Assembly: GCA_964386355.1 (NCBI GenBank)
Contig: CAYLQQ010000007.1
Span: 1-59,561 of the forward strand
Length of the DNA: 59,561 nt
DNA from: an uncultured Pseudomonadales bacterium
Lineage (GTDB): Bacteria > Patescibacteriota > Microgenomatia > UBA1400 > UBA1449
Direction of reading: 5' to 3'
Shown: piece by piece, positions 31,956 to 50,147 of the stretch
Numbering within the stretch: position 1 is the stretch's first letter
How the letters are laid out: every line of letters starts with the position of its first letter
Translations under genes and position numbers: made by a program
The notes under the pieces: model-generated
Databases searched by the model: none
What the model saw: only the letters and a program-made list of their open reading frames with translations
Told to the model about the DNA's origin: nothing

Positions 31956-32375
31956 CTAATTCCTCTGCCTCACAATCATCTGCTCAAGGTTTTCATATCC
32001 TATGAGCGAATCTTTCTTTTCAGATAGCAATCGGCCTTTTTTTGCATAATCCTGCATAGCACGTATTTTTCTTCGCATAACTCTTGGTAAGTTGATCTTT
32101 TCGTTTACTATTAGCCCCGTTACTGTCTGCCGTTGATGTTTGCGCAATATCCGAATCTTTTTCTTTTTCTGGATTGCGTATCCATAGTCATGTAATATCT
32201 TTCGTATCAAAGGAAAGATTTGTTGGGTAGCAGATGTAAACGTTTTAAAAGAAAAGGTCATATCATCAGCATAGCGACTATACGTTCCGCCAAACTTTTG
32301 AGTCAGCCTGGATAGTCTTGTATCCATTTGATAGTTAACCAGATTACTCAAATAGGGACTGGTTACTGGCAGTGC
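31956..32375 (-). pseudogene. retron-type reverse transcriptase, C-terminal half (split gene)
   Basis: The frame is open upstream of the listed Met and reads ...LPVTSPYLSNLVNYQMD...YSRYADDMTFSF (YADD)...RQTVTGLIVNEKINLPR (retron VTG motif). It lacks RT motifs 1-4, which are found at 51006-51530. Confidence 0.8.
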
Positions 32376-32478
32376 CGGTATAGAACCTTGTTGTCGCTAT
32401 AACTCGCGTTCGAGACTCTGGTAATTGGCAGTGCCGGTATGGAACCCCTTCGTCGCTATAACTCGAGTAAAACGAGAC
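32367..32478. repeat. two tandem ~50-nt direct repeats at the left junction of the inserted element
   Basis: Copy 1 (32367-32416): TGGCAGTGCCGGTATAGAACCTTGTTGTCGCTATAACTCGCGTTCGAGAC. Copy 2 (32426-32478): TGGCAGTGCCGGTATGGAACCCCTTCGTCGCTATAACTCGAGTAAAACGAGAC. Confidence 0.7.
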
Positions 32479-32520
32479 AAATGAGACAGTATAAAAAAGA
32501 GAATTGATCATACAAAGCTA

Positions 32521-32549
32521 TTGACATTGTACACACATGTATATACACT
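32521..32549 (+). promoter_or_regulatory. putative sigma70-type promoter of the RHH/Shedu gene pair
   Basis: TTGACA (32521-32526), 17 nt, then TACACT (32544-32549), just upstream of the 32556 ATG. Confidence 0.3.
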
Positions 32550-32555
32550 AGCTCT

Positions 32556-33440
32556 ATGAGAAAAAATCAAGTCATTAACATAACATTATCCGACGATTTG
32601 TTGCAGGCAGTCGATAAACAGGCTGAGATTGAATTAAGGAACAGGAGCGAGCTGTTCAGAGAAGCGGTACGGACGTATCTGTTTAGTAAAAATGCTGACA
32701 AGATGCATCAGGCGTTTACTGACAATGAATCAAATAGAGTGAACGACATAAAAAAATTCTCTGATTTTGAAAATTCCACTACTTTTGCATTGTCATGTTC
32801 GTTTCGACCACAACCAAATAAAGTTGAAGAGATTTTCTCTGGTAGCGGTTCCGACTTAATAAAGTACATTGAAGACCCGACGAGCTTCAGACGTATGGGA
32901 TGGGATATGAGAACGCTCGGGAGGGCTACTCCGGTAGCTGGTGAGTACCTACAGATAACAAATGGCGACCGCAAAATTATCAGGATTTATAGAGATGGAC
33001 AGATTGTATTTGCTGCAAGTGAAGATTTTTTTGGACATGGGGTAGAAGTTAATGAAGATGAGGTTGGTAAAATTTTCAGATTTAACAGCATGGCATCTGC
33101 TGAGTTGATATCAAATTTTGTCAATTTTTCTCTGGAAATCGGTAAATACCTGTCGGTTGATCCCTCCGGTATTGTTTATAAAATACGGATTTTCAATCCC
33201 AAAAGAAAACACCTTGAATTAACTTCCATAAACATGTTTAAAGAGAAAATGGGAGAATTGACACTCGATTTAGCTGACAGAGAGGTTTTTATCACTAGTG
33301 AAGATTTTAAGCCAGAAAAAATTGCTTTTACCATATGGGCCGAATTTAACTATCTTTTCGGAATTAGTGAAGACCACTTTGTTTATGTAGATAGAGGAGC
33401 AAAATTAATGAACTTCGAACAATTTTCAGAGAAGAGATAA
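32556..33440 (+). CDS. ribbon-helix-helix (CopG/Arc-like) domain protein with ~240-aa unknown C-terminal domain
   Basis: N-terminus INITLSDDLLQAVDKQAEIELRNRSELFREAVRTYL matches the RHH pattern. I cannot assign the rest. Confidence 0.6.
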   Translation: MRKNQVINITLSDDLLQAVDKQAEIELRNRSELFREAVRTYLFSKNADKMHQAFTDNESNRVNDIKKFSDFENSTTFALSCSFRPQPNKVEEIFSGSGSDLIKYIEDPTSFRRMGWDMRTLGRATPVAGEYLQITNGDRKIIRIYRDGQIVFAASEDFFGHGVEVNEDEVGKIFRFNSMASAELISNFVNFSLEIGKYLSVDPSGIVYKIRIFNPKRKHLELTSINMFKEKMGELTLDLADREVFITSEDFKPEKIAFTIWAEFNYLFGISEDHFVYVDRGAKLMNFEQFSEKR

Positions 33441-33442
33441 AT

Positions 33443-34621
33443 ATGGGTGAAAAGCAATTAATACAAGTCGATGTAAAAAATGATCGGTCTTTGAGCAAAT
33501 TGGGAACAGTTACAGTTTTTTTAACCCCTGAACTCAAAAAAGAGCTAGATGATGAAAAAACTAAAAATGGAGAAACACTGTCAGTTCTTTTTGCTCGAGG
33601 TATGGCTCTTAGAGGATTTAAGCATCTAGTTGAGAAAATTAGAGAGAAAAATCCCTCTATCAGAATAGTATTTACTCATGAGGCTACTTCAAAAGCCGAT
33701 GGATCAATCTACGTTGACTACGACGGCTACAAAAAAGCAACGTCGCAAAAGTTTTTCTCTTTTTATCGAGAAACCGGATTAGATGCAGCAAGTTATTATC
33801 TTAATCACTGTTTTCCAACTGAATACGCATACGACTCTTCTAAGGTATCCGAAGCCGACGTTAAAAAGTTTGAAAAAAATTTTGAGCAAGTCATATCACA
33901 GGTGCCTAAAAAAAGAAAAAATAAAAAGGCGTTAATTGACCAAACCTCTAAGGTAATATCAGAATTGTCAGCACAAAAGAAAATGCTAAAACAAGAGGTT
34001 GAGGATCTCGAAAAGCTTCGCAATACTTCAAATATCTTTTTCTTTCAAAGTAGACTGGAAGAACTTAAAGATAGACTCACAAAAACTTATCCTGAAACAA
34101 AAGGAAAGAACTCATGGCAAGAGTGGGTATATAAAAACAATTGGCTTTTTGGCATTAACTACCAACCCCCTATAGAAAAACAAAAAATTAACGTCGCAGG
34201 TAGCATGCCCGATTTTATCTTCCCCACAATGGACGGCTTTCTGGATATCTTAGAGATAAAACTCCCATCTAAAGCAATAATTGTTAAAGATGTTGATCAT
34301 AATAATTCTTTTGCATGGTCAAGCGATGCAAATAAAGCAATTGGTCAAGTCGTAACCTATTTAAACGAAATCGAACTGTATCAACTTCACTTAAGAGATG
34401 AAATCAAGCGTGTTTATAATTTTGACATTTATTTAATTAAACCTAGAGCTTTTATTTTGATAGGAAACAAAAATGGTTGGTCGGAAGAGCATCATAAAGC
34501 ACTTAGAAAACTCAACTATTCCCTTCATGGAATAGAAGTTTTGAGTTATTCTGACCTTTTGCAAAGAGGCAATGAAATTATTACCAACTACACCTATAAA
34601 TACTCAACAACTAGCAATTAA
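33443..34621 (+). CDS. Shedu-type (SduA, DUF4263) PD-(D/E)xK nuclease
   Basis: C-terminal SWQEWVYKNNWLFG...MPDFIFPTMDGFLDILEIKLPS...AIGQVVTYL...KPRAFILIGNK...LNYSLHGIEVLSYSDLL follows the DUF4263 pattern. Variable coiled-coil N-terminus. The start lies 2 nt after the RHH gene stop. Confidence 0.7.
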   Translation: MGEKQLIQVDVKNDRSLSKLGTVTVFLTPELKKELDDEKTKNGETLSVLFARGMALRGFKHLVEKIREKNPSIRIVFTHEATSKADGSIYVDYDGYKKATSQKFFSFYRETGLDAASYYLNHCFPTEYAYDSSKVSEADVKKFEKNFEQVISQVPKKRKNKKALIDQTSKVISELSAQKKMLKQEVEDLEKLRNTSNIFFFQSRLEELKDRLTKTYPETKGKNSWQEWVYKNNWLFGINYQPPIEKQKINVAGSMPDFIFPTMDGFLDILEIKLPSKAIIVKDVDHNNSFAWSSDANKAIGQVVTYLNEIELYQLHLRDEIKRVYNFDIYLIKPRAFILIGNKNGWSEEHHKALRKLNYSLHGIEVLSYSDLLQRGNEIITNYTYKYSTTSN

Positions 34622-34632
34622 TCAAATCCTTT

Positions 34633-36288
34633 TTACTTATCGTTAATATTTGCAATATTAGTTTTTGACTCTTGTTTAGAATATTTTTTCAGAAATTCCT
34701 GATTTTCCTTTACTAAATACACTGTGAAATAAGCATTTCCACTTTTGTCGAGTAAATCCCTGCCGTGTAACACGCCTTCTCGCCTCAATTTTTTGATAGA
34801 GGAGGGGTGGACTTCATGTTTTGATTGAATATCCCATTTCTCAAACCACACCTTCTTATCCTCATGGCGTGATTTTATATATGGAATGGTTTTGTTTTTG
34901 ATATTTCGCCAACAATCAGCACATCTCAAGCCATCCGGATTCCACCAAATTTCATTACCAGGATGGAGCTGGCTGCAAATACCACAATTGTAAGGGCCTT
35001 CACTAGCCTCTAAAAAGAAACCCTCAGGTTCATCCTTTAACCTTCGTTTGCGCATATTTTCAACACCATCATGTTCGCCAAAAAGTCGAGCCAGTTGCAC
35101 TAAATTATGAGAGGAATACTTTTGCCGCAACTCTTCACTGATTTTAGGTTTTGGTTTGGGTGCCTCTTTCTTACCCGCTAGTTTCAACATGTCTTCTTCT
35201 TGTTCATATCCTTTTAATCTGCCTTCCAAATATCCCAGACGATAATAGACACTGTTGGATACTAGACGCCAATTAGTATCTTCGAGCGTGTTTTTGACCA
35301 ATTTTTCTAGTTCTGACGCACTCGCTCTGTCTTTCCTGGATGAATCACTATCTTGAACCGTAAAGGGGACAATTACATATTTGCCGATTTCCGGTTTATC
35401 CAATGAGAGTTTGGTATATCGAGCTTCCTCCAGGGTAGTGGCAAGAAGTTTCTCTAAATCAGCAATAGTTGTCTTTTTGAGTTGAAGCGACCGCTGGTAA
35501 ACCGGACTATCATATTTTTGGGTTTCTTCTTCCCGAACCACAGTGGCTACCTCCATAGCCTCCATCAACTCGATATATTCTTTACCCTCCTTATCGGTTA
35601 AACAGAACTCACTGCGATATTTTTCCAACAGTTCTTTGTCTTTTTGTTGCTTAGCCTTCCATTCAGCGTCACTCTTTTCAAAATCATCAACCTCAACTTC
35701 TTTGTATTTACATGAGCTGCAAGTAATGGTGGTAGTTAAAACTTTTCCTTTCCGTTTGTATTTTCGTTTAAGTTCTTTACCACATTTTGGGCACGGTTCC
35801 GGAGTTGATACTCTTTCTTCGCCATCATCATAAATCCCACGGCGCTTCTTACACTTCAGGCACTCAAACATAAATAACACCCTCAGAGGTTTGTTATCGT
35901 CAAAATCTTCCAAGTGCTTAAAATCACCCGCCGTCATTTCAGTGTTGCAAGCAGAACAGAAAATATTTGATGGAGCAGGGGTGTTATCCAGCCTATCTTG
36001 TTTTACCCTATCTCGTTCAACCCATTCGGCAATTGTTTTCTCTCGTCTGCGATACCGCTCACCCTTAGTTACCCTCAGTTGCCAACCGTAATAATAATTG
36101 AAACCCTTTTCAACTTCTTCTGGAGGAATTTTCTTTAATTGTTTATCAGTATCTTTTTTCTTGTATAAATTCTGCCAAAACTTAACAACATGTAAGCATT
36201 CCTTTATTGTGAAAAGGTCATATAAGTCGTTATAGTGTTGTTCATCTTTTAGGTAGTCCATCATCTTCATTAGATGGTTCAGCAACAT
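34633..36288 (-). CDS. multi-zinc-ribbon protein, unknown function
   Basis: 551-aa ORF; the start is probably one of the Mets at 36261-36270. CxxC pairs: CSAC...CLKC, CPKC...CSSC, CGIC...CADC. No enzymatic motif recognised. Overlaps the 3' end of the DUF2130 gene. Confidence 0.5.
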   Translation of the reverse strand: MLLNHLMKMMDYLKDEQHYNDLYDLFTIKECLHVVKFWQNLYKKKDTDKQLKKIPPEEVEKGFNYYYGWQLRVTKGERYRRREKTIAEWVERDRVKQDRLDNTPAPSNIFCSACNTEMTAGDFKHLEDFDDNKPLRVLFMFECLKCKKRRGIYDDGEERVSTPEPCPKCGKELKRKYKRKGKVLTTTITCSSCKYKEVEVDDFEKSDAEWKAKQQKDKELLEKYRSEFCLTDKEGKEYIELMEAMEVATVVREEETQKYDSPVYQRSLQLKKTTIADLEKLLATTLEEARYTKLSLDKPEIGKYVIVPFTVQDSDSSRKDRASASELEKLVKNTLEDTNWRLVSNSVYYRLGYLEGRLKGYEQEEDMLKLAGKKEAPKPKPKISEELRQKYSSHNLVQLARLFGEHDGVENMRKRRLKDEPEGFFLEASEGPYNCGICSQLHPGNEIWWNPDGLRCADCWRNIKNKTIPYIKSRHEDKKVWFEKWDIQSKHEVHPSSIKKLRREGVLHGRDLLDKSGNAYFTVYLVKENQEFLKKYSKQESKTNIANINDK

Positions 36289-37642
36289 CGGGTAATTCTA
36301 AATAACTTACTTTTGGCAGAGCGTTACCTATCAAGCCTTGTAAATCACCATAGATTCCAGATGTATTGGCCATAACCTTCTGTATACTCTTTTCTTCTTC
36401 TTGCCACTTTTTATTAAAGTAAACACGCTCCTTGTTGATTTTCTCTTGTCTCTCACGGAAGTATTCCACCCACACTTCAATCCGCTGTTTGAACTCATTG
36501 CTAATTAGGTAGTTGTACACCACTTCAGCTTTGGTGGCTTTGCCTTCGTTGGCCAGCTGGGCCGACTGAACCTTAATCAACTGTTGCCGGAGAAGATATG
36601 CCACTCCTAGAACAGCCTTCATATCAGAAACCAACACTCCATCAACCGCACCAAAACCAACTATTTGATTCGGTAAGATGTTGGATACCAACACTGCCAA
36701 ATCAGCCTTAACCGCTCTTTGGTCTTCTTTAAGCTTGGGGATCCACGAAAATGTCCAATTCTTGGTTCGTTTCGACTCCCAAATGACGACTCCGCAAGGT
36801 TTACCCACCTGAGTCCTCACCACTTGCAACACATCGGCGCCGTTGACGCCTTTTGGAACTTCTTTGATTTCGTCAAATGGAAACTCAGCCTTGAGGATTT
36901 GTTCCAATTCCAACTCTTGAACCTCCCCCTGGAGCTGTTGTGAGCCCTGTTGGATCTTGCGTTGTAACTCAAGAATCTGTTTTTCGGCATCCTGGAGCTT
37001 CTTATCCTTTTCGGCAATCTTTAGGTCTAGCTCCTCTCTAGCTTCTTTTTTGGCATCATCTTTTATCTTGTCCTGACCTTCGAGTAACTTCTTCTCATAT
37101 TCAACTGACAATTTGTCTTTTTCATCCTTGAGTTCACGCATTTGTTTAAGCAAGTCTTGGAGTTGATCCCGCAATTCTTTATTCTGCTTGTCCCTAGCCT
37201 CTGCTTCCTCCTTGGAGGCGGCTAGCTGGGTTTCTAGCTCTTTGCGAACTTTCTCCTCCGCTTCTTTTCGTGCTTCTTCGGATGATTTCTTGCGAACCTC
37301 GTCCAACTCCTGCTCGTGTTGTCTTCTTGTCTTAGCCTTATCCTCTTTCAACTCCGACAACAACTTCTGATTGTCTTCCAATTCTTCTTTGAGTTGGCGG
37401 TTCCGTCTGGCGTTCGAGTCTGCTTCCTTCCTAACCGCTTCTACCGTGACTTCCAGCTCCTCTTTGGCTTTTTTCTCTACCTCAGCTTTAGTTGCCTCTG
37501 CCACCTCTTTTTTGGCTTCTTCTAGATCCTGCTGATGTTGGGCTTGTGATTCACGACGAATCGTTTCCTCAAGCTCGTGCTTGTATGCATCTCCTGGTTC
37601 GAACAACTCTCCACACTTTGGACATTTGATTTGATTTGTCAT
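36242..37642 (-). CDS. DUF2130-like protein (N-terminal zinc ribbon, long K/E coiled coil, C-terminal nuclease-like domain)
   Basis: IKCPKCGELFE, then ~200 aa of a K/E-rich heptad-like region, then GADVLQVV...GVVIWESKRTKNW (D...ExK-like). Confidence 0.6.
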   Translation of the reverse strand: MTNQIKCPKCGELFEPGDAYKHELEETIRRESQAQHQQDLEEAKKEVAEATKAEVEKKAKEELEVTVEAVRKEADSNARRNRQLKEELEDNQKLLSELKEDKAKTRRQHEQELDEVRKKSSEEARKEAEEKVRKELETQLAASKEEAEARDKQNKELRDQLQDLLKQMRELKDEKDKLSVEYEKKLLEGQDKIKDDAKKEAREELDLKIAEKDKKLQDAEKQILELQRKIQQGSQQLQGEVQELELEQILKAEFPFDEIKEVPKGVNGADVLQVVRTQVGKPCGVVIWESKRTKNWTFSWIPKLKEDQRAVKADLAVLVSNILPNQIVGFGAVDGVLVSDMKAVLGVAYLLRQQLIKVQSAQLANEGKATKAEVVYNYLISNEFKQRIEVWVEYFRERQEKINKERVYFNKKWQEEEKSIQKVMANTSGIYGDLQGLIGNALPKVSYLELPDVAEPSNEDDGLPKR

Positions 37643-37660
37643 ATAAATTTACTCTGTATT

Positions 37661-39745
37661 TTATTTGGTGATCGACCTTACTAAAGTTGCGAGTACCGAC
37701 TGCGAGCTGACTTCAACATTATCAATAATTTGCTGAGCATAACTAATACTCATAGCTTTTTGCCTCTCTAAATCACCTAAGATATCATCCAAAAGTTCAC
37801 CAATTCTATGTTGCTCATCATATTCAGGGGCTGGGAATTGGAGTTTTCTAATATGTCGATCGTTTAAAGCTGGATAGTGTGCGCCTCGCATTAACAAGTG
37901 ATATTGGTTGATAAGCTGTGGTGAAATAAGCATATAGTAGAGAAACTTAGGATCTGCTTGGTTATCGCTTCTTAGCACCGCAAATCCTGTTGAGCAAATT
38001 TGGTTATCAAATGCCTCTGTTACGACAGCGTGCCCGCACAGGTATGGTCTAACTGTGGATAGAACTACATCCCCTTCACGAATAACACGTCTTGCTCGAG
38101 ATGGAGCTTCAGAACCTAGTATTAATTTTACATTTTCGAATGTATTTAAACTAACCGAAGAAATATCAACATACTGAAATTCTGTTTTAGATGATTCTTT
38201 AGCAGGATTTCTATTTTCAGGATTTATCTTCACTCCCATTTCTTCCAAAGTTTTAAGAGGGTATCGATCTAACTTACTAAGTATTGGCGAAATCAAACGA
38301 ATTGACTTAGCTAACCCATCAACACTTGAATCTAATCTATCGCACGAACGATTAAGCTCCTCAGATAACTGGTTAATATCCCTAATCACAACTCCGCCAG
38401 TTTTTTTCGGGTGATGTAAATCTAAATTAAATTTGTCTTCTCCGACTGCTTCCCTGGTTACCTTCCAAGCATATTCGTTTTCAACTCTTTCCCCCCACCA
38501 AGAATTTAATGGTTCAAACTCTTCATATAAGAGGGGTTTTGATTTTATATAGCAAGGATTCTTTAGTTTCTGTCTGTCAGGAGGTAGTGGGTGGTCATAA
38601 TACCAAATATGTTTAGTCTTATTCTGTTTTTCAATAAATACTAATGACGTTTCTTGATCTGTATAAGGAGAAAACACTCCCTTTGGTAGTTTAATGATTG
38701 AATGCAAGTTAAAGTCATCTAAAAGCGCCTGTTTTATTTTTTGAGCAACACCTTCTCCAAACAAAAACCCTGGAGGTAACACTATTCCACATCTCCCTCC
38801 ATTTTTTAATAACCTCATAATATATTGCATAAAAAGCAATGTTGTTTCGGCTGTCCTCATACTCATCGGGAAATTGTCCTGGATGCCTTTTTCTTCCTCA
38901 CCACCAAATGGAGGGTTAGTTAGGATTACGTCAAACTTGTCCTTTTCGGTAATTTCCTTGAGTGGAGTGGTTAGCGTGTTTCGACGCTGAATGTTGGGAG
39001 TCTCGATACCATGAAGCATCAAATTCATTGTGCCAAGAAGATACGGCATTGGCTTTTTCTCAATACCAAAGAAGGTTTTGTATTGAAGCTGGTCATAATC
39101 CTCGGCTGTCTTGGCTTGCTGCTTCATATACTCATATGCTTCCACCAAGAAACCACCAGTGCCACAGGCCGGGTCCAAAACCTTCTCTCCTAACTTTGGT
39201 TTAATATGCTCCACGATGAACCGCACCACTGGCCTGGGGGTGTAAAACTCACCACTCGAACCGGCAGCGTCTCGCATCTCCTTGAGCATACTTTCATAAA
39301 GATGGGAGAGGGTAAAAATGTCGTCTTTGGATTGAAAGTCAATTTCATCGATAAGATTGATTATTTCTCGAAACAGGTAGCCCGACAGCATTCGATTGTA
39401 GGTCTCGGCAAAAAGCGAGGCAAGAACGTCTCTAGGATCATTCTCTTTAGTTCCCTTCAACTCTCTTAGGTAAGGTATCAACTTATCGTTTACATACTTG
39501 ATCAAGTCATCACCAGTGATTCCCTCGTCGTTACTTGCCCAATCTCGCCAGCGGTGTGGCTTTTCGATTACTGATCGATGACCGGAAATCAGGGCTTCAT
39601 TGCGCTTCTCTAGATCGTCAAAAAACTTAAGAAACAACATCCACGAGAGCTGGGGTGTGCGATCGACATCCGTCGACAACCCCGCGTCCTTGCGCATTAT
39701 GTTTCTGGCTCGTTTAATGATGCTGGTTAGTTGTTGTTTTTTCAT
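37661..39745 (-). CDS. hsdM: type I R-M N6-adenine methyltransferase fused to a single-TRD specificity (HsdS-half) domain
   Basis: HsdM_N (PQLSWMLFLKFFDD). Motif I DPACGTGGFL. Motif IV NPPFGG. C-terminal ~200 aa has an HsdS target-recognition pattern (FQYVDISSV...GDVVLSTVRPYL...STGFAVLR...FLYYML) plus one conserved helix. Confidence 0.85.
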   Translation of the reverse strand: MKKQQLTSIIKRARNIMRKDAGLSTDVDRTPQLSWMLFLKFFDDLEKRNEALISGHRSVIEKPHRWRDWASNDEGITGDDLIKYVNDKLIPYLRELKGTKENDPRDVLASLFAETYNRMLSGYLFREIINLIDEIDFQSKDDIFTLSHLYESMLKEMRDAAGSSGEFYTPRPVVRFIVEHIKPKLGEKVLDPACGTGGFLVEAYEYMKQQAKTAEDYDQLQYKTFFGIEKKPMPYLLGTMNLMLHGIETPNIQRRNTLTTPLKEITEKDKFDVILTNPPFGGEEEKGIQDNFPMSMRTAETTLLFMQYIMRLLKNGGRCGIVLPPGFLFGEGVAQKIKQALLDDFNLHSIIKLPKGVFSPYTDQETSLVFIEKQNKTKHIWYYDHPLPPDRQKLKNPCYIKSKPLLYEEFEPLNSWWGERVENEYAWKVTREAVGEDKFNLDLHHPKKTGGVVIRDINQLSEELNRSCDRLDSSVDGLAKSIRLISPILSKLDRYPLKTLEEMGVKINPENRNPAKESSKTEFQYVDISSVSLNTFENVKLILGSEAPSRARRVIREGDVVLSTVRPYLCGHAVVTEAFDNQICSTGFAVLRSDNQADPKFLYYMLISPQLINQYHLLMRGAHYPALNDRHIRKLQFPAPEYDEQHRIGELLDDILGDLERQKAMSISYAQQIIDNVEVSSQSVLATLVRSITK

Positions 39746-39748
39746 AGG

Positions 39749-41449
39749 CTAAAACGGAATATCATCCTCCTCTGATTCTGTTTCTAAATTTGGTTCAGAA
39801 CTGCTAGATGAAGAAGTCAGTCCGAATAACTCAATGACCCTACTAATAAAAGCTGGCATTTGGGACAAGCCAATATCTTTGGCGTAATCACGTGCCTCTT
39901 TTATTTCACGCCACTTGTTTTTTTTGTGAGACTGTAAACCACACGCATCCTGAAAATTATTCTCTAGTGCAATTACATTTTCACCAAACGTATTCAAACT
40001 ACTGTTAATGACGTCATTCTGTGAATCCTGCTGTTTTAGCGCTGCTAATTTAAGAGTATTGGGAGGAGTTTTGCTTTCTTCGATAGCAACTCTTTCCTTC
40101 ACGTCTTCGTCAGTATCGTATAAGGCAACCCACTTAATTTGACAAACTTCACAAACTCTTATTAGGAAGTTGAGTTTTGTCTTCCCTTCAGCTGAAATTA
40201 CCACGATGTTTAATTCTTCGGGTTTGAATCCCAACCTCTCGAGCATCGTTGGTATTGAATGTTTTTCGGTATCACCCTCAACAAGAACAACATAGTCGGC
40301 AAAAAATATCTCGTTTCGTTCTTGATTAAATTCAGTGAGAAGTTTTATTTCGTCTTTTTCGTCACTCGTAAGACTGCCATTCTTTTTCTTTTCGTCTGTT
40401 GAAGGTGATTTTCGAATAATTCTTATATCTTCGGCGCTTGATGAATCCACAAAATTTGGAGAGTGTGTTGTGTAAAAAATTTGAGTTCCTACACCACCAT
40501 CAGTGGGGTACGCAATTTCTCTAAATTCCCTAAACAGTTGCCTTTGGGCTTGTGGGTACAAAAATATTTCCGGCTCCTCGATGGCCATAATTGCAGAGGA
40601 TTTCATTAGCTTGCCATAAGTTAAAAATAGCGAAAGCAAAACAAGATTTTGCACACCAGAACCCAATTCCTCGACGTTAAAGTTACCTAAAGTTTCGGAT
40701 CCAATTATTTGAATAGTTTTGTAGTAAAACAAAGGATCGTACACTTCCAAATCAAGTTCAAAATGTTCGGCTAAACCCTTTGAGTATTGTTTACAGATAG
40801 CCGTAAACAAGTTCTTAAACTTGGCATAATCCAATCTATCGTGAAACTCTGATTCTAAAATTGCTCTTGGCTGGCGCATTGCCTCCTTAAAAACCATTTC
40901 CAAGGGTTGGCCATTGTCGTCTGATGCACGCCTGAAGTTTTCATCAATTTTTTTCAAAATCTTACCTAATAATGTCCAATTACTTACGGATAATTGTTTA
41001 TCGAGGCTTCGTTCTGATGGTAAATATATGAAGTTGATTTGGTCCCTAGCTTCACTAGACGCCCAAAACTTCCTTCCATCATTGGTATAAGCGAAAAAAC
41101 TGTGTGCACCGAAATTGACTTCAGGATTTCTTGTGTGGGTGAGCTGCAGAGAAATTGGCTGCACAGCTTCTTTTAGTCGAGAGTCACAAGATGTTAGCCG
41201 ACAACTCCCTAAAGGCTGATCGAACCAAATTTGAACAGATATTGTCTTGTTGGGGTCTCTTTGATAGAAGTCGTCCTTTGTAAAAGCCCTTTCGGTTGGG
41301 TAAGTTTCACCTAAAACAATATCCAACGCCTTCAATATGTTTGTTTTTCCAGAGCTATTTGGACCTACTAAGCCACTTAACTTGGCAACGTCGTCAAGTT
41401 CAAGATGTTCTATCGATCTAAAATTTTCAATTATTATTTTGTTAATCAT
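39749..41449 (-). CDS. OLD-family ABC-ATPase / Toprim nuclease with SSB-like acidic C-terminal tail
   Basis: Walker A GPNSSGKT. Signature-like LGSGVQN. Walker B IMAIEEPE. TTHSP. Toprim VVLVEGDTE and ALYDTDED. The C-terminus is SSSSSSSEPNLETESEEDDIPF. Confidence 0.8.
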   Translation of the reverse strand: MINKIIIENFRSIEHLELDDVAKLSGLVGPNSSGKTNILKALDIVLGETYPTERAFTKDDFYQRDPNKTISVQIWFDQPLGSCRLTSCDSRLKEAVQPISLQLTHTRNPEVNFGAHSFFAYTNDGRKFWASSEARDQINFIYLPSERSLDKQLSVSNWTLLGKILKKIDENFRRASDDNGQPLEMVFKEAMRQPRAILESEFHDRLDYAKFKNLFTAICKQYSKGLAEHFELDLEVYDPLFYYKTIQIIGSETLGNFNVEELGSGVQNLVLLSLFLTYGKLMKSSAIMAIEEPEIFLYPQAQRQLFREFREIAYPTDGGVGTQIFYTTHSPNFVDSSSAEDIRIIRKSPSTDEKKKNGSLTSDEKDEIKLLTEFNQERNEIFFADYVVLVEGDTEKHSIPTMLERLGFKPEELNIVVISAEGKTKLNFLIRVCEVCQIKWVALYDTDEDVKERVAIEESKTPPNTLKLAALKQQDSQNDVINSSLNTFGENVIALENNFQDACGLQSHKKNKWREIKEARDYAKDIGLSQMPAFISRVIELFGLTSSSSSSEPNLETESEEDDIPF

Positions 41450-41450
41450 A

Positions 41451-43856
41451 TTAGTTGGTGTACAAATATTCCTGCATCTGGTTAGCAGCTTCTAAATACT
41501 GGTCTCGGCCGCCAAAATAGTTGATGATGTCCACTGGTGTACCGTATTGATTGAGTGGCTCCACGTTGAGAATCCGAATCACTGGTGGAATCTGATCCTC
41601 TTCTTTGGCAACGGGTGACAACTCCTCGATGCCGTGTTCGGCGTACTTCTCCAGCAAAATCTCAATTACTTTGCGAGCCTCGGGACTGTATTTATCCAAA
41701 AACGACTGTTTAAACATCCTCAACTCTTTTACTCGCTCGCGCCTGGATTTGATGGCTCCGTTGAAAGCTATGTGGACTAACAAATCTAGAGGATCGGCTT
41801 CGGGGTTATCCGTTGTTTCCATCAGTAATTCAAGCGAAACACCCCGCTTCATCAATTCCTCAACCAATTCCCACCTCTTCTTAGTGTCAAGCCAGTTTTT
41901 GCGAAGCTGGTAAGCATCGTTAAACAGTTGTCTAATTACAACCTTGGTGTAGTCGGTCAATTTGGTCAGCTCTAGTCGCTTGCCATCGGCTCCCAACTGA
42001 TACTCGACCTCGTGAACAATAGAGGCGGGAATTTCATCAACGTAGTACTTTCGTGGCGCTCGATATTCTTCATCGTCACCATCTCTTACCATCATCGGTT
42101 GCTCTTGTTGCTCCTGCTCCTCGATGGCTTGTTCTTCTTCTGGAGTCGGTTCGGTTTCGAATGTCTCCGATTTAGTAACGTCACCTTCCTCATTGATCTC
42201 TTCCTCACTTAACAACTCCGGGTCACCATCAAACTCAGGATCAGCGAATAGCCTGGTGGCCCCTGTGTAGTCAAGAATAGTGAACCAAAGTTTGTCTTTG
42301 TCAGTGAAAAGCCGTGTCCCACGTCCGATGATTTGCTTAAAGTCAGTCATCGAATTGATTGGTTTAAACAACACAATATTTCGACAAGTTGGCGCATCCA
42401 CGCCAGTAGTTAACATTTGAGAAGTGGTCAAGATGATTGGTGATTTAGCTGGGGTATCACGTTCGGGGTCTTGGAAGTCGTCCAAATATTGCCTGCCAAT
42501 ATCTCCCTCATCCGACACTACCCGAACACAGTAGTTGGGATAATCCTTGGTGAAATCAGTGCTGAGGTTATTGATAGCCTTACGCATCTCATCTGCGTGT
42601 TCTTGATCCACACAAAAAACGATGGTCTTAGCCAATGGATCAGTCTTATTGAGGTAATCGACTAAATGTTTAGCTACGGCTTGGGTCCTGCTCTTGATCG
42701 ACAAAATTCGCTCAAAGTCCTTGGTGGTATATTCCTGATCAGGGATTTCATTACCGTAGCGATCCACCATTCCAGTTTCTGGCCGAAAACCAGTAGCATC
42801 CACATCGGTTACCACTCTTCTAACTTGGTAGGGAGCCAAAAATCCATCGTCTATACCATCTCTTAGTCTGTAGGAGTAGATAGGGTTGCCAAAGTAGTTG
42901 TAGGTGTCCACATTGTCTTTGCGTTTTGGCGTGGCGGTTAAACCAATCTGGGTGGCGTTACTAAAATACTCCAAAATCTCCCGCCACCGGCTTTCATCCT
43001 TGGCACTACCTCGATGACACTCATCAACTACAATCAAATCAAAAAAATCGGGTGAATATTGTTTGTAAAGTGGCGGTCTAGTGGAATCACCACAAATTGC
43101 CTGATAAATGGCAAAGTAAACCTCGCGTGCTTTGTTGGCTTCTCCTTGAATCTTCCAAATCGCATCACCCATTGGATAGAAGGTTTTGTCCTTGGCTTGA
43201 TCAACCAACACATTCCGATCGGCCAAAAATAGAATTCTTTGTTTGCGTTTTGTCTTCCACAACTTCCAGATGATCTGGAAGGCTACGTATGTTTTGCCTG
43301 TACCAGTGGCCATCGTGATTAAGATCCGCTTCTTACCACTGAGGGCGGCGGCCGTCGCACGATTGATGGCGATTTCCTGATAATACCTTGGTTTCTTACC
43401 ACCAATATCTCGGAAACTAGGGAAAAGGAAATCTTGCTCAACCTCAGGCGATATCTGTTCTGCATCACGAGTTCGTTGCCACAACTCTTGAGGAGAAGGA
43501 AAATTGTCACGACTTAATTGTTGACCGTTAGTAAAGTCAAACTCCTCGATGCCTTTACCATTAGTGGAGTAAGCAAAGTGAAGACCAAGAATCTGAGCAT
43601 ATTCTTTTGCTTGCTGCATTCCGTCACCTGGATTCCTATAGTCTGCCTTAGCCTCAACTACACCTAGAGCAATATCTCGGTTGAGTCGCAACAGATAGTC
43701 AGCCTTTTTGCCTTTTTTGCGAAAATGCTTTTGTCCCACCACCACAATTCGACCATCAGTAAAGTAGTGTTGTTCGTTTATTTGGTCATCATTCCAACCA
43801 GAATCATACAACTTAGGGAGAATATATTTACGACATGTATCTGCTTCGTTTGCCAT
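41451..43856 (-). CDS. hsdR: type I restriction enzyme R subunit
   Basis: N-terminal PD-(D/E)xK (ADYLL...GVVEAKA). SF2 helicase motifs MATGTGKT, VVDECHR, GLTATP and QIIGRGTR. Confidence 0.9.
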   Translation of the reverse strand: MANEADTCRKYILPKLYDSGWNDDQINEQHYFTDGRIVVVGQKHFRKKGKKADYLLRLNRDIALGVVEAKADYRNPGDGMQQAKEYAQILGLHFAYSTNGKGIEEFDFTNGQQLSRDNFPSPQELWQRTRDAEQISPEVEQDFLFPSFRDIGGKKPRYYQEIAINRATAAALSGKKRILITMATGTGKTYVAFQIIWKLWKTKRKQRILFLADRNVLVDQAKDKTFYPMGDAIWKIQGEANKAREVYFAIYQAICGDSTRPPLYKQYSPDFFDLIVVDECHRGSAKDESRWREILEYFSNATQIGLTATPKRKDNVDTYNYFGNPIYSYRLRDGIDDGFLAPYQVRRVVTDVDATGFRPETGMVDRYGNEIPDQEYTTKDFERILSIKSRTQAVAKHLVDYLNKTDPLAKTIVFCVDQEHADEMRKAINNLSTDFTKDYPNYCVRVVSDEGDIGRQYLDDFQDPERDTPAKSPIILTTSQMLTTGVDAPTCRNIVLFKPINSMTDFKQIIGRGTRLFTDKDKLWFTILDYTGATRLFADPEFDGDPELLSEEEINEEGDVTKSETFETEPTPEEEQAIEEQEQQEQPMMVRDGDDEEYRAPRKYYVDEIPASIVHEVEYQLGADGKRLELTKLTDYTKVVIRQLFNDAYQLRKNWLDTKKRWELVEELMKRGVSLELLMETTDNPEADPLDLLVHIAFNGAIKSRRERVKELRMFKQSFLDKYSPEARKVIEILLEKYAEHGIEELSPVAKEEDQIPPVIRILNVEPLNQYGTPVDIINYFGGRDQYLEAANQMQEYLYTN

Positions 43857-43936
43857 AGATCAAATTTTTCTTAATTACTCAGACATTATTTTACCACCAG
43901 ACTAAATACTTAGTCATGCTTAGATTTAAGTTTTTG

Positions 43937-43966
43937 TTGACAATAATATCGCGGATATGCTAAATA
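43937..43966 (+). promoter_or_regulatory. putative promoter for the ParB-methylase/terminase operon
   Basis: TTGACA (43937-43942), 17-18 nt, then CTAAAT/TAAATA. It is followed by a ~130-nt leader with a 9-bp hairpin (43981-44010) and a strong RBS AAGGAGG before the 44101 ATG. Confidence 0.3.
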
Positions 43967-44100
43967 TTATATAAAGATATTTGTCCTTCAAATTCATGAC
44001 CGAAGGACAACTCGCATAGAAGGCGGGTGTTAGAGAACTATTACAAAAATATTTCTCTGGCATCCGCTTTTTTGGTTGTCAGATCATAAGGAGGTCGCTT

Positions 44101-45432
44101 ATGACAGCACCCAACAATAATTTAAAAGTCGAGTATGTTCCTATCGAACAACTCAATCCAGCCATATATAACCCACGTAAATGGTCTGATGAGAAGACTA
44201 AACAATTGAAGGAAAGTATTAAAAAGTATGGTTTGGTAGATCCATGCGTAGTTAATCAGTCAACTGGAAGAGAGAATATTGTAATTGGCGGACATTTCCG
44301 GTTAAAAGTTGCCAAAGAGCTAGGTTATAAAACTGTCCCCGTTGTTTATCTCAATATTCCCGACATTGACACTGAGAAAGAGCTAAATATCCGGCTCAAT
44401 AAAAATCTAGGCGAATGGGACTGGGAGTTATTAACTAATTTCTCTGAAAAATTGTTAGATAATATCGGCTTCACCAGTCAGGAACTCGATAATATTTTTG
44501 ACATTGATACCGATAATCCCGAACAGTTCGACCTGCAAAAAGAACTAGAGAAACTTGATATTCACCAGGTCACCATGAAGAAGGGTGAAGTATACAAGCT
44601 TGGTGAGAGCAGGCTTATGATTGGGGATTCGACCATTAAAGATGATTTTTTGAAGCTGATGAATGGTGAAAAGGCGGATATGTGCTTAACGGATGAGCCA
44701 TATCTCCTTGATTACACTAACGCAAAGCGTCACGGAAAGCCTACAACCGGATTCGGAGCCAAGCGTAATCGCAGATATCTTGAGACTGAAACTCTGCCAC
44801 CCAACTTTATTTCACTTTGGATGGCTAACGTGGCAAAAACCGCCAAGCCCGATTTTAGTATTATCTCCTATGAGAACTGGAAAAACGTTAGAGCCATGTG
44901 GAATGAAATGGAAAAATACTGGAAAGTCCGCAATATGCTGATTTGGCGGTTACCAAACCGGCACCAGGGATTTTCAGCCAAGTATAGGTTCTTCTCAAAA
45001 TATGATATTGCAATGATAGGCACGGGAGGAAAAAGAGAACTAAATACGGCTGCTGAAGAAGAACTTCTGCAAAATGAATATGAAACGGCTTTATTTGCAA
45101 CTTCTGGCAAGCCTCATTGGGAAAGTTATCAGAAGGGCAAGAAAAACCAACCCACTGACTTTATTGAGTTCAATGCTTCCGACGAAAAACACTCCGGACA
45201 AGGGGTAATCTTTGGCACCAAGCCGATTGAGATTCTAATCCCGTACATCAAAGTTCTCACCAAACGGGGTGATCTGATTATTGAACCCTTTGGCGGTTCG
45301 GGTAGCACATTGATTGCTGCCGAGAAAATGAAACGACGCTGTTATGTGATGGAAAAAAGCCCGGTCTATGCCGAGGTAATTCGCAAACGCTGGGAAAGAT
45401 TAACCGGACAGAAAACAGAAAGGATCATATGA
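44101..45432 (+). CDS. ParB-like nuclease domain fused to DNA (N4/N6) methyltransferase
   Basis: ParB box YVPIEQLNPAIYNPRKWSDEKTKQLKESIKKYGLVDPCVVN...GGHFR. Methylase motif IV-like TDEPY. Motif I IIEPFGGSGSTLIAAEKM. Confidence 0.85.
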   Translation: MTAPNNNLKVEYVPIEQLNPAIYNPRKWSDEKTKQLKESIKKYGLVDPCVVNQSTGRENIVIGGHFRLKVAKELGYKTVPVVYLNIPDIDTEKELNIRLNKNLGEWDWELLTNFSEKLLDNIGFTSQELDNIFDIDTDNPEQFDLQKELEKLDIHQVTMKKGEVYKLGESRLMIGDSTIKDDFLKLMNGEKADMCLTDEPYLLDYTNAKRHGKPTTGFGAKRNRRYLETETLPPNFISLWMANVAKTAKPDFSIISYENWKNVRAMWNEMEKYWKVRNMLIWRLPNRHQGFSAKYRFFSKYDIAMIGTGGKRELNTAAEEELLQNEYETALFATSGKPHWESYQKGKKNQPTDFIEFNASDEKHSGQGVIFGTKPIEILIPYIKVLTKRGDLIIEPFGGSGSTLIAAEKMKRRCYVMEKSPVYAEVIRKRWERLTGQKTERII

Positions 45433-45863
45433 GCACCAAAACTATTGCTAAACGAATCCAGAAACAACAGGAACAATTCCTAGAACAGTGCCGGAAGCTA
45501 CCCATTATTCAGGTAGTCTGCGAAAGATCCGGTATCAGTCGGGCAACTTATTACAGATGGCGCAAAGAGTTCCCAGATTTTTCTAAGGAAGCTGATCAAG
45601 CCATTCAGGAAGGCAAATTACTGGTTAACGATATGGCGGAGTCACAACTGCTAAACGCTATCAAAGACCACAATATGACTGGAATCATTTTTTGGCTGAA
45701 ACACCACCACCGTGATTACGCCACCAAGGTTGAAATATCCACCGCCCCCAAAGACAAAGAGAATTTAACCAAAGAGCAAGAAGATTTAGTTAAAAAATCT
45801 TTGGTGATGGCCGGACTTATCGGAGAAAGGAGGCAGGATGAAGCCGATAGAGCCAATGAATGA
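45429..45863 (+). CDS. HTH protein, terminase small subunit-like
   Basis: ERSGISRATYYRWRKEFPDF HTH. ATGA overlap with the methylase gene and a 26-nt overlap with the terminase large subunit gene. Confidence 0.5.
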   Translation: MSTKTIAKRIQKQQEQFLEQCRKLPIIQVVCERSGISRATYYRWRKEFPDFSKEADQAIQEGKLLVNDMAESQLLNAIKDHNMTGIIFWLKHHHRDYATKVEISTAPKDKENLTKEQEDLVKKSLVMAGLIGERRQDEADRANE

Positions 45864-47394
45864 GAATCTTCTACGCCAGATTAACACCAGTCGAAGCTTC
45901 AGGCGAAAATTAGCCACGAGCAGCCATTACTGGTTTTTCCATATCTACTTTAGCCACTACATCAAGTACCAGACTGCTGATTTTCAAAAGGAGATGTTTA
46001 CCATCACTGAAAATGAGCAGAATAAACTGGCAGTGATTGTGGCTTTTCGGGGATCAGCTAAATCCACCATTGCTTCATTGTCCTTCCCGATCTGGGCAAT
46101 GCTGGGTAAATTGCAGAAGAAATTTATTATCATCACCAGCCTGACATCTAATCAAAGCAGGTTACTACTCACCGCTATCAAAAATGAGTTAGAAACCAAT
46201 GAACTACTGATCAATGATTTCGGGCCATTCGATGAAGACGATCAGGAATGGCGGTCTAATTCGTTAGTGATCAAAAAATACGGAACCAGAATCTCATCCT
46301 TCTCTACCGGAGAGGCTATTCGTGGCTCGAAGCACAACCAATACCGCCCTGACCTGATTATTTGTGATGATATAGAAGATTTATCGTCAGTTAAAACCAA
46401 AGAGAGCCGTGATAAAACCCATCAATGGTTAACCGGAGAAGTGATTCCGGCGGGAGACACCAATACCAAGGTGGCCGTAGTCGGTAACTTACTACATGAA
46501 GACTCGGTTATCTGCCGATTGGACGAGAATATTAATGAAGGCATTCTTAGTGGAGTGTTCCGTAAATACCCACTCCTGGATGGGCAGGATAGGTCGCTGT
46601 GGCCGGGTAAATTTCCTGATCAGCAGTCAATTAAAAATCTACAAAGCCAGGTAGCCAATGATCAGGCTTGGCATCGGGAATATCTACTCCACATCATCTC
46701 TGATGCGGAAAGGGTCATTCATCCAGAGTGGATCCAATACTATGATCGGTTGCCGGGAAAAAGTAACCCCACTGGGTTTCAATTTATAGCTACGGGGGTG
46801 GATTTAGCCATTTCCCAAAAACACTATGCCGATAATACGGCTATGGTTTCGGTACAAACCCATCGGATCGGGAGTAGGTACATGTTCTACATCCTACCCA
46901 ATCCGATCAATCAAAAACTATCGTTCCCGGATACCGAGCAGATGCTAAAAGATATTTCCATGCTCCTAGACTCATACCTATATATAGAGGAGGTTGGATA
47001 TCAGGCATCTATTATTCAGGATTTGACGCAGGATGGCTATCATGCAACCGGGGTCTCACCCAAAAGCCAGGACAAAAGAACCAGGTTATCATTAATCTCG
47101 CACCTAGTTAAAAACGGAACCATACTGTTTCCCAAGTTCGGCTGTGAAGATTTAATCAAACAAATGGTCGGTTTTGGCATCGAAAAGCATGATGATCTGG
47201 TTGATGCCTTAACCACCCTAATTCTGGGCATCATAGGCAAGCCTCCGTATACAGGAGAAGTAAGAGCTGTTCCAATTGAAAATTTCTACAACAGCAGGAT
47301 TATCTCGTCCCGAAGCGATGATTGGGCAGAGGAAGAAGACAGACAGATATTCAGAAAGTTAAAGTCCCGAAACCATCATCGGATTTACGGTTAG
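45838..47394 (+). CDS. phage terminase large subunit-like protein
   Basis: Walker A-like VAFRGSAKST. Walker B DLIICDDIED. Nuclease-domain acidic residues (GVDLAIS..., KHDDLVDAL). Confidence 0.7.
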   Translation: MKPIEPMNENLLRQINTSRSFRRKLATSSHYWFFHIYFSHYIKYQTADFQKEMFTITENEQNKLAVIVAFRGSAKSTIASLSFPIWAMLGKLQKKFIIITSLTSNQSRLLLTAIKNELETNELLINDFGPFDEDDQEWRSNSLVIKKYGTRISSFSTGEAIRGSKHNQYRPDLIICDDIEDLSSVKTKESRDKTHQWLTGEVIPAGDTNTKVAVVGNLLHEDSVICRLDENINEGILSGVFRKYPLLDGQDRSLWPGKFPDQQSIKNLQSQVANDQAWHREYLLHIISDAERVIHPEWIQYYDRLPGKSNPTGFQFIATGVDLAISQKHYADNTAMVSVQTHRIGSRYMFYILPNPINQKLSFPDTEQMLKDISMLLDSYLYIEEVGYQASIIQDLTQDGYHATGVSPKSQDKRTRLSLISHLVKNGTILFPKFGCEDLIKQMVGFGIEKHDDLVDALTTLILGIIGKPPYTGEVRAVPIENFYNSRIISSRSDDWAEEEDRQIFRKLKSRNHHRIYG

Positions 47395-47443
47395 TCTACC
47401 GACACTGCGCTTGACTTGACCAGTTGTTGCGGTACTGTTTAAC

Positions 47444-49812: not shown

Positions 49813-49898
49813 ATTGGTTAAAAATCCTGGTTTAATACTAACTTACAGTTAGCAAATAATCAAGCTATCTACCAGGCGTAAATGCTAACTCTCACTTA

Positions 49899-50147
49899 GT
49901 GGAGCAAATAACCTTCCCAGGCAACAATAATGTCATGAGGAAGAACGCCAAATTACCACGAGTACTCGGTAAGAAAGTCCAAAAAAGAAGAAAGGAACTA
50001 GATCTAACCCAGGAAGATGTAGCTTATAAAGTCGGTATTAGTAGGGCTTATATGGGTTATATCGAGCAAGGAAGAAATATACCTTCGCTGGAAATGTTGG
50101 AGAAAATTGCCAGAGTTTTGAAAGTCAAAACAAAAGATCTTCTTTAA
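49899..50147 (+). CDS. XRE-family HTH transcriptional regulator
   Basis: LTQEDVAYKVGISRAYMGYIEQGRNIPSLEMLEKIARVLKV. The likely true start is the ATG at 49935. Confidence 0.8.
   Translation: MEQITFPGNNNVMRKNAKLPRVLGKKVQKRRKELDLTQEDVAYKVGISRAYMGYIEQGRNIPSLEMLEKIARVLKVKTKDLL

Follow-up and report, generated by a model that had tools for sequence, protein, structure and literature searches.

In the 59,561-nt contig CAYLQQ010000007.1 of an uncultured bacterium (assembly GCA_964386355.1, placed in the Patescibacteriota by GTDB), five open reading frames (ORFs) are packed on the minus strand between positions 34633 and 43856. The contig is the whole stretch of DNA analysed and is referred to as the window below. 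The five genes encode a type I restriction subunit, an OLD-family nuclease, a modification subunit fused to half a specificity subunit, a DUF2130 protein and a protein with three zinc ribbons (ZnR). They lie within an integrated phage-derived element, in a slot for variable cargo that is bordered by a gene for a ParB-type methyltransferase (ParB-MTase). The block and the region in front of it consist of the following features:

43857..44100, no strand: intergenic region from which hsdR and the ParB-methylase gene diverge, presumably with the promoter of the block (promoter-like site, hairpin)
41451..43856, minus strand: hsdR, type I restriction subunit of the EcoAI/type IB family, 801 aa, cargo (NF046051, Pfam, PADLOC)
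39749..41449, minus strand: Class 1 OLD ABC-ATPase/Toprim nuclease, 566 aa, between hsdR and hsdM (Pfam, match to 6p74)
37661..39745, minus strand: fusion of hsdM with half an hsdS (a single target-recognition domain and the conserved region), 694 aa, cargo (Pfam, PDB)
36242..37642, minus strand: DUF2130, a gene conserved on mobile elements, far end of the slot, 466 aa (PF09903)
34633..36288 (probable start 36261 or 36264), minus strand: ZnR, fixed edge of the slot, 551 aa (conserved family)

The ORF list of the window confirms these five genes, and the coordinates and spacings given by an initial annotation of the block, made from the sequence alone, were reproduced exactly. hsdR and the OLD gene are separated by 1 nt (TAA-T-ATG), the OLD gene and hsdMS by 3 nt, and hsdMS and the DUF2130 gene by 18 nt, after which the DUF2130 and ZnR genes overlap by 47 nt when the longest ORF is taken, or by ~ 20 nt if ZnR starts at M9/M10, a methionine supported by its homologues. 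The domain calls of the initial annotation for all five proteins also stand (by Pfam, NCBIfam, PADLOC and PDB matches), as does the placement of an OLD-family gene between R and M, in the same orientation and separated from them by 1 and 3 nt; matches to AAA_15, AAA_21 and OLD-like_TOPRIM (PF20469) identify this middle gene as an OLD-family nuclease and not as an unrelated ABC protein. A promoter-like site lies at 43917-43888 (minus strand) in the intergenic region upstream of hsdR, and a consensus scan gave no promoter or terminator above chance inside the block; the absence of such internal signals is compatible with co-transcription from hsdR to ZnR. Upstream of the hsdR start there is also a hairpin (43981-44010) with an 11-bp stem followed by a T-rich tail, for which a role as operator or as terminator is possible. 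The G+C content at third codon positions (GC3) is uneven across the block (hsdR 0.47, OLD 0.35, hsdMS 0.38, DUF2130 0.47 and ZnR 0.38), and this spread of 0.35-0.47 agrees with a mosaic origin.

The restriction-modification (R-M) part of the block is closest to the type IB (EcoAI-family) systems. HsdR scores 1019 bits against the EcoAI/FtnUII model NF046051 (cutoff 550), matches ResIII, EcoEI_R_C and HSDR_N in Pfam and REase_I in PADLOC (E=9e-235), and combines an N-terminal PD-(D/E)XK nuclease with a superfamily 2 (SF2) motor and the EcoEI_R_C domain; the motifs D53...E68-x-K70, GTGKT and DECH can be read from its sequence. The M::S fusion (N6_Mtase, HsdM_N and Methylase_S in Pfam) matches solved type I M subunits over residues 3-452 (3ufb, 2e-148; N6_Mtase 1e-68; NPPF motif), and its residues 507-656 match positions 22-174 of 398, i.e. 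the first half, of the S subunit 5ybb_D. Unlike in type IB systems there is no separate hsdS: S is present as a half only (one recognition domain, at the C-terminus of HsdM), without a second hsdS in the operon. From work on truncated HsdS it is known that S subunits of half size can recognise symmetric sites as pairs. In the same manner two M::S subunits might pair, so that their half-S parts would form one specificity unit for a symmetric bipartite site; M::S would then mark the cell's own DNA by methylation and, jointly with HsdR, cut incoming DNA that is not methylated. Long HsdM-like proteins (641-741 aa) were also encountered in other Patescibacteria (loci L018, L036, L058 and L067 of the censuses described below), and the alignment of the L036 protein to the M::S protein of the window extends into the S portion. 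It may therefore be that HsdM-S fusion is common in Patescibacteria.

The block as a whole is contained in a larger insertion, for which these features were annotated:

32364..51062, no strand: integrated phage-derived element holding the entire five-gene block, 18,699 bp, with a split retron-type reverse transcriptase (RT) at its junctions
31956..32363, minus strand: split retron-type RT, C-terminal half, in host DNA at the left junction (RVT_1 129-203; YADD, VTG)
51063..51530, minus strand: split retron-type RT, N-terminal half, in host DNA at the right junction (RVT_1 2-123; NAKQH; end ...GGLPQGAA)
44101..45432, plus strand: ParB-MTase (ParB_N plus N6_N4 DNA methyltransferase), backbone gene and other fixed edge of the slot (Pfam; phrog_498, E=1e-84)
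45429-45863, plus strand: terminase small subunit (TerS), backbone (phrog_309, E=2e-11)
45838-47394, plus strand: terminase large subunit (TerL), backbone (phrog_38, E=2e-76)
47444..48736, plus strand: large serine recombinase (integrase) (Pfam Resolvase, Recombinase and Zn_ribbon_recom; phrog_95, E=9e-58)
32556-33440, plus strand: RHH-domain protein, 294 aa, convergent with ZnR (Pfam RHH_1)
33443-34621, plus strand: Shedu SduA, convergent with ZnR, second defence cargo position (Pfam SduA_C; PADLOC SduA, E=8.5e-73)

The two RT ORFs are complementary, since the one at 51006-51530 (minus strand) spans positions 2-123 of RVT_1 and the one at 31956-32351 (minus strand) spans positions 129-203. 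Joining the halves at 51063 and 32363 restores LPQGAA/TSPYLSNL (the slash marks the join) in a 291-aa protein, in which the motifs NAxxH, LPQGAATSPYLSNL, YADD and VTG can be read, and which matches the PADLOC retron RT models with E-values of up to 2.8e-77, contiguously over the join (e.g. residues 29-265 = profile positions 24-268). From the complementary halves and the restored join it follows that an 18.7-kb phage-derived integrative element interrupts a retron-type RT gene, and that the whole 'operon' is part of this element. The element boundaries were set from the split RT gene, because no convincing direct repeats were found at the ends, except for two tandem 51-nt repeats (84% identical; 32359-32468) at the left junction. 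The first copy of these straddles the RT/element boundary, and they may be duplicated attachment (att)-like or recombinase-binding sites. The tRNA-His gene was considered as the integration site and rejected in favour of the RT gene.

The element has 13 ORFs of 120 aa or more, none of which was recognised as a capsid or tail gene; it is therefore either satellite-like or a degraded prophage. Two of these ORFs are without a Pfam or PHROG match, i.e. g48733 (48733-49812, minus strand), with weak PADLOC matches to the phage-defence candidates PDC-S11, PDC-S18 and PDC-S02 (E=3e-12 to 6e-6), and g50144 (50144-51013, minus strand). The genes of the RHH protein and of Shedu SduA are only 2 nt apart and are possibly a regulator-effector pair. 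With the retron RT, a defence-type gene has been disrupted by a mobile element that itself carries defence genes; Rfam at gathering threshold gave only tRNAs and no msr/msd RNA over the window, in a scan that included no search aimed at msr/msd.

To see the block next to its relatives, the surroundings of ZnR homologues were annotated with the window proteins at 80 loci (one per species), with mechanical ORF calling and family labels taken from single-sequence phmmer matches, as in the other censuses below, and with 10-kb flanks, which miss larger slots. A ParB-MTase gene lies divergently upstream of ZnR within these 10 kb at 24 of the 80 loci, at a spacing of 0-8.6 kb, and is followed by TerS in 16 of the 24 and by TerS-TerL in nine. 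Where at least 9 kb of upstream sequence was available (58 loci), half of the loci (29) have at least one backbone marker. The 80 slot proteins include LexA-like repressors, R-M enzymes of type I, IIG and ISP, MmeI-like enzymes, a CBASS cyclase with SAVED, UvrD helicases and C5 methylases. An empty site was found as well: at L024 the ParB-MTase and ZnR genes are adjacent and divergent, 242-243 bp apart (9752-9995). At L032 (9917-9936) a methylase-like gene abuts ZnR, which is a second ParBMT-labelled ORF and not the copy in the TerL-HTH-ParBMT backbone further upstream. As putative empty cargo sites, L024 and L032 are references for the insertion point.

The nearest relatives of the element make the exchange of cargo visible. 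Three loci (L012, L053 and L028) share with the window the ParB-MTase (67-68% identity), TerS, ZnR (45-60%) and Shedu, whereas their cargo differs; L012, which also shares the serine recombinase (53% identity), has a LlaBIII/LlaGI-like enzyme and a UvrD-like helicase in its slot, and L012 and L053 both repeat the ZnR>Shedu< layout. In another related element (L089), which has no ZnR, a 69%-identical DUF2130 closes the ParB-MTase slot after a helicase-nuclease. The slot is thus closed by ZnR in the ZnR-bearing relatives and by DUF2130 in L089, with Shedu just beyond it in the window. The intergenic region next to ParB-MTase measures 205-265 bp in the related loci, among which it has no nucleotide conservation and no conserved promoter or att-like sequence. 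With conserved flanks, unrelated cargo and an empty site, the locus behaves as a variable hotspot, and in related elements of other Patescibacteria the slot is either empty or filled with quite different defence systems. This resembles the defence hotspots of prophages and phage satellites (P2, P4), where conserved flanks bracket a site at which unrelated defence systems are swapped. Unlike those hotspots, it occurs in Patescibacteria, its flanks are a ParB-methylase and an uncharacterised three-Zn-ribbon protein, and a large serine recombinase integrates the element into a retron RT gene.

The reading favoured here, with a probability of roughly 75%, is that these genes form a layered defence island, which travels as mobile-element cargo, and not a dedicated five-component machine, i.e. 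a mosaic of a type I R-M system with an inserted OLD gene of the stand-alone type, followed by two conserved genes whose neighbours change. Tight packing on a shared strand probably gives co-expression and layered defence. Co-transcription with the hsd genes would provide the OLD gene with co-inheritance, co-regulation and complementary cover, for which a physical guard link would not be required. The slot and its flanks (the ParB-methylase and three-Zn-ribbon genes) are hereby defined across Patescibacteria, and since the defence biology of these bacteria has been little explored, the slot offers itself for a search for new systems.

Several observations weigh against reading the block as a mosaic of cargo. 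The very tight junctions (1, 3 and 18 nt, and an overlap) fit selection for co-expression and could reflect functional coupling. The association of OLD with type I loci recurs, namely as hsdM-hsdS-OLD-hsdR at L175 (Pfam-confirmed) and as hsdR>OLD> at L177. An OLD-family gene directly adjoins DUF2130 at nine of 79 DUF2130 loci, versus one of 80 controls (Fisher p=0.009). A recognisable backbone marker lies within 10 kb at only 31 of the 80 ZnR loci, so that a place in the backbone is not established for every ZnR. Finally, close relatives of this hsdR/hsdMS pair, which would allow the same R-M system to be compared with and without OLD, were not found in a scan of viral contigs, nor among the fetched loci (identity of at most 32%).

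By sequence the OLD protein belongs to Class 1. With its family profile as query, the OLD structure of Thermus scotoductus (Ts OLD, 6p74) aligns full length at 7e-78, compared to 1e-20 for GajA and 6e-4 for AriA, and the single sequence still matches 6p74 at E=1.4e-43. The alignment to 6p74 (residues 1-516) retains GPNSSGKT (Walker A), IEEPE, THSP, VEGD and D445xD447. With an ABC ATPase and a Toprim domain in one polypeptide and with intact catalytic residues, the protein is a Class 1 OLD like P2 Old, Ts OLD and Vc OLD (V. cholerae), with which it shares the order of ABC ATPase, dimerisation insert and Toprim. It is also a single-gene system, as its only neighbours are hsdR and hsdM::S and there is no GajB (as in Class 2), no retron RT/ncRNA partner (Class 3) and no AriA/AriB split (Class 4); the retron RT of the window lies outside the element that interrupts it, and is hence no partner of OLD. 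Other classes were considered and rejected. For Gabija (Class 2), the block has no UvrD-like gene and the GajA match is far behind that of Ts OLD. For PARIS (Class 4), which the initial annotation had named as a relative, the PADLOC match to AriA is confined to the ATPase (residues 1-334, 1.9e-40) and comes after those to Old and GajA, the Toprim domain belongs to the OLD-like PF20469 and not to the DUF4435 type of AriB, and AriA structures are matched no better than 6e-4. PrrC and RloC do not fit the OLD architecture with its Toprim domain, nor is there an AAA_13 among the seven Pfam matches at E<=0.01, and MADS models stay far below their cutoffs (MAD2 113 bits versus 720, MAD3 41 versus 420, MAD5 27 versus 400).

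Context was available for seven loci with the closest homologues of the OLD protein (five distinct proteins, 49-56% identity), and at every one of them the gene is solitary, near integrases, recombinases or type II R-M genes and with no hsd or DUF2130 gene nearby, from which it follows that this OLD needs no Hsd partner. As solitary genes in mobile elements these homologues resemble the Class 1 OLDs, which have been described as single genes that are not proximal to other defence genes and of which the characterised members act alone by abortive infection. They nick or degrade DNA, or cut tRNA (P2 Old, Vc OLD, Ts OLD): P2 Old is triggered by inhibition of RecBCD and cuts tRNA anticodon arms, and Vc OLD nicks DNA. 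By analogy, the OLD of the window would act alone as an infection-triggered abortive-infection nuclease. It differs from these enzymes in sitting inside an R-M operon, near other defence genes, and in a second respect that concerns its C-terminus.

The C-terminal stretch of the OLD protein (39749-39823, minus strand) ends in SSSSSSEPNLETESEEDDIPF, with ...EEDDIPF as the last residues. This motif copies the C-terminal tip (DDDIPF) of SSB, a protein that binds single-stranded DNA. Unlike in Class 1 OLDs as described, about half of the clade to which the window OLD belongs has such an acidic ...[DE][DE][IL]PF tail: 59 of 120 homologues end in PF and 30 of 120 match [DE][DE]x?[ILVMF]PF, a pattern seen in 0/120 and 1/120 members of two control families. 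Literature searches found no paper that links an SSB-tip-like tail to OLD nucleases. On the evidence of these tails, mimicry of SSB for sensing, targeting or auto-inhibition is possible, which suggests a sensing or targeting route that would be independent of R-M. As a lead, the tail could bear on how Class 1 OLD nucleases sense infection.

The initial annotation had suggested that this may be an undescribed restriction-plus-guard system. That a defence gene is embedded in a type I R-M locus is in itself not new. Type I R-M, BREX, DISARM and Hachiman systems often hold embedded defence genes, with PrrC as the paradigm (Payne et al. 2024). Those in type I R-M loci are usually defence genes, often of the ABC-ATPase/TOPRIM kind, and 96.7% of embedded genes have the orientation of the host system (Payne et al. 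2024). The order hsdR-OLD-hsdM::S on one strand is such a case. RloB-type Toprim proteins have likewise been cited as components of type I loci, and TgvAB, embedded in a type I operon of V. cholerae (VPI-2), works independently of the surrounding system. The OLD gene of the window resembles PrrC in EcoprrI, the Campylobacter rlo genes and TgvAB as a defence-type gene between hsd genes on the same strand. It is unlike PrrC and RloC (AAA_13 plus an anticodon nuclease domain) in being a full-length Class 1 OLD, unlike the RloA/RloB type in not being a split pair, and unlike the described embedded genes in that its nearest relatives are not embedded.

An embedded ABC-ATPase system may, according to Payne et al. 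(2024), back up the system that surrounds it; they point out that Ocr activates PARIS and Gabija and that Stp activates PrrC. Together with the same-strand embedding at 1- and 3-nt junctions and the independent cases L175 (embedded) and L177 (adjacent), this argument is what speaks for a restriction-plus-guard unit, in which OLD would be functionally tied to the type I enzyme and fire when restriction is neutralised. In the strong version the Hsd complex would keep OLD silent, as with PrrC; in the weak version, as with PARIS and Gabija, its trigger would be the DNA-mimicking anti-restriction proteins by which type I enzymes are disabled. However, the protein is a Class 1 OLD and none of PARIS, Gabija or PrrC, its closest homologues are solitary, and the characterised Class 1 enzymes act alone, P2 Old sensing the loss of RecBCD and not anti-restriction proteins. 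Whereas PrrC is found almost only within type I loci (Payne et al. 2024), OLD lies in or next to one at only two of 31 OLD-anchored loci, and its GC3 differs from that of hsdR (0.35 vs 0.47). A guard function of either kind thus appears unlikely. Of the system proposed by the initial annotation, the embedding of OLD is real, and OLD recurs in (L175) or beside (L177) type I loci, but the censuses do not bear out a conserved five-gene system: DUF2130 has homologues at none of the 80 ZnR loci and none of the 31 OLD loci (OLD homologues were found at two of the 80 ZnR loci). The most far-reaching form of the idea is equally doubtful. It would have R-OLD-M::S as a selected restriction-plus-backup unit, with OLD sensing, possibly via its SSB-tip-like tail, the counter-measures that disable the type I enzyme and then aborting infection, and with DUF2130 and ZnR as further co-expressed players and not bystanders; if true, it would extend the PrrC paradigm to OLD nucleases.

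Under the cargo reading, the last two genes of the block are conserved genes with changing neighbours. For ZnR, which had been called an orphan, a search gave 633 homologues (E<=1e-3), of which 120 were listed; these have 50-92% identity along approximately the full length and, according to their record titles, come mostly from Patescibacteria. The family has 13 invariant cysteines and a mean column identity of 63%; the invariant pairs C111/C114, C143/C146, C166/C169, C190/C193, C435/C438 and C456/C459 make up three ribbons. An AlphaFold2 (AF2) model of the protein reaches a pLDDT (predicted local distance difference test) score of 86 and a predicted template modelling (pTM) score of 0.65. Foldseek gave no fold match at E<=1e-3 in PDB and BFVD, and only a subdomain of ~ 100 aa resembles S24e/S6 (E~0.01). 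In sequence searches, nothing beyond weak matches to zinc ribbons came from Pfam, NCBIfam, PADLOC and PHROGs, the best PDB sequence match had E=0.045, and neither an enzymatic nor a known sensor domain was detected in any of these five. This Zn-ribbon family, which is large and conserved and for which a confident model finds no significant fold match in PDB/BFVD, is a lead in its own right. Two ZnR copies were seen in some metagenome-assembled genomes (L011 with L029, and L022 with L065).

The immediate neighbours of ZnR allow for two views of its role. At 46 of 77 loci ZnR overlaps its same-strand upstream neighbour or lies no more than 60 nt downstream of it, and these tightly linked neighbours fall into 36 unrelated clusters and are of diverse defence types; the 92%-identical homologue sits after a TatD DNase gene. 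This tight linkage, the strong conservation, and the confident model without a solved or viral structure match at E<=1e-3 speak for ZnR as a module (regulator, sensor or cofactor) shared by the various cargo systems that lie upstream of it, in which case it would functionally be part of the block. But 25 of the 77 upstream neighbours are on the opposite strand, the downstream side is variable too, ZnR is found beside ParB-MTase with no cargo in between at L024 and is abutted by a methylase-like gene at L032, and no sensor or enzymatic domain is apparent. A shared module is therefore quite unlikely, and a nucleic-acid-binding or regulatory function in the backbone of the element is the most likely option for ZnR.

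The DUF2130 protein matches PF09903 at E=6e-63, and its AF2 model (pLDDT 79) consists of an N-terminal CxxC knuckle, a coiled coil of ~ 240 aa and a C-terminal α/β PD-(D/E)XK domain. The C-terminal domain has weak but consistent structure matches to SPARDA DREN, DdmD, Bax1, MspJI and PaqCI, the residues D270, E289 and K291 are invariant, and DUF2130 is listed as PD-(D/E)XK family 109 (PMC3424549). It is probably an autonomous DNA nuclease of mobile elements. In a census of 79 non-redundant loci, ABC ATPases (AAA_21 13, AAA_15 11, AAA_13 7) predominate among the 89 genes immediately beside DUF2130, along with SIR2_2 (7) and SF2 helicases. A dedicated DUF2130-ZnR pair was rejected, as no ZnR homologue was detected at the 79 DUF2130 loci, no DUF2130 homologue occurs at the 80 ZnR loci and the two genes are adjacent at none of 159 other loci.

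More is to be said for a link with OLD. Besides the adjacency at nine of 79 loci noted above, the density of OLD-family genes near DUF2130 is raised per gene (12/657 vs 4/1261, p=0.001), and the usual order is DUF2130>OLD>, with 4-nt overlaps at L093, L109, L150 and L170. Given also the prevalence of ABC ATPases beside DUF2130, the two could constitute a two-gene nuclease system, i.e. a new context class of OLD, whose partners have been separated by hsdM::S in the window. However, the OLD-adjacent DUF2130 proteins are not a clade (of their nearest relatives, at 74-94% identity, 0/9 have an OLD neighbour; permutation p=1.0), the OLDs that accompany DUF2130 are mutually distant (mostly 20-38% identical), none of the 31 OLD-anchored loci has a DUF2130 gene, and DUF2130 occurs alone on rhizobial conjugative plasmids and in Helicobacter prophages. 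In the window itself the two genes are not adjacent. A co-evolving pair was hence rejected despite the enriched adjacency, and a two-gene system is highly improbable. Since its OLD-adjacent members form no clade, the OLDs beside them are distant from each other and solitary copies exist, DUF2130 is, like ZnR, better regarded as a conserved mobile-element gene than as a dedicated partner of OLD. As a probable mobile-element nuclease that is enriched beside OLD-type and putative PrrC- and RloC-type ATPases, it is nevertheless a lead to follow.

A few further arrangements were seen around DUF2130. At L122, L133, L140, L149, L164 and L169 it is followed by a protein of ~ 750-770 aa, for which AAA_13 was confirmed individually for L122 (764 aa) only; the order at L122 is hsdM-hsdS-DUF2130-AAA_13. 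AAA_13 proteins may be a second recurrent class of DUF2130 partners. The 750-aa neighbour at L098 is a ResIII/DEAD helicase instead. An island at L106 (5241-18293; domains confirmed) combines an SNF2 helicase, a MORC-like HATPase_c_3 protein, DUF2130, SIR2-HerA, an N6_N4 methylase and a ResIII helicase. From the pattern of gene sizes and phmmer labels this type of island appears to recur at L134, and ORF sizes and phmmer labels show a partial resemblance to it at L107, L120, L139, L150 and L174. Finally, genes for 7-deazaguanine/queuosine precursors (GTP cyclohydrolase I, PTPS and QueC) lie near DUF2130 or ZnR at L089 (9495-14505) and L006 (1441-2762), in stretches that also carry BpsA_C, AdoMet_dc and TatD, which hints at cargo for DNA hypermodification.

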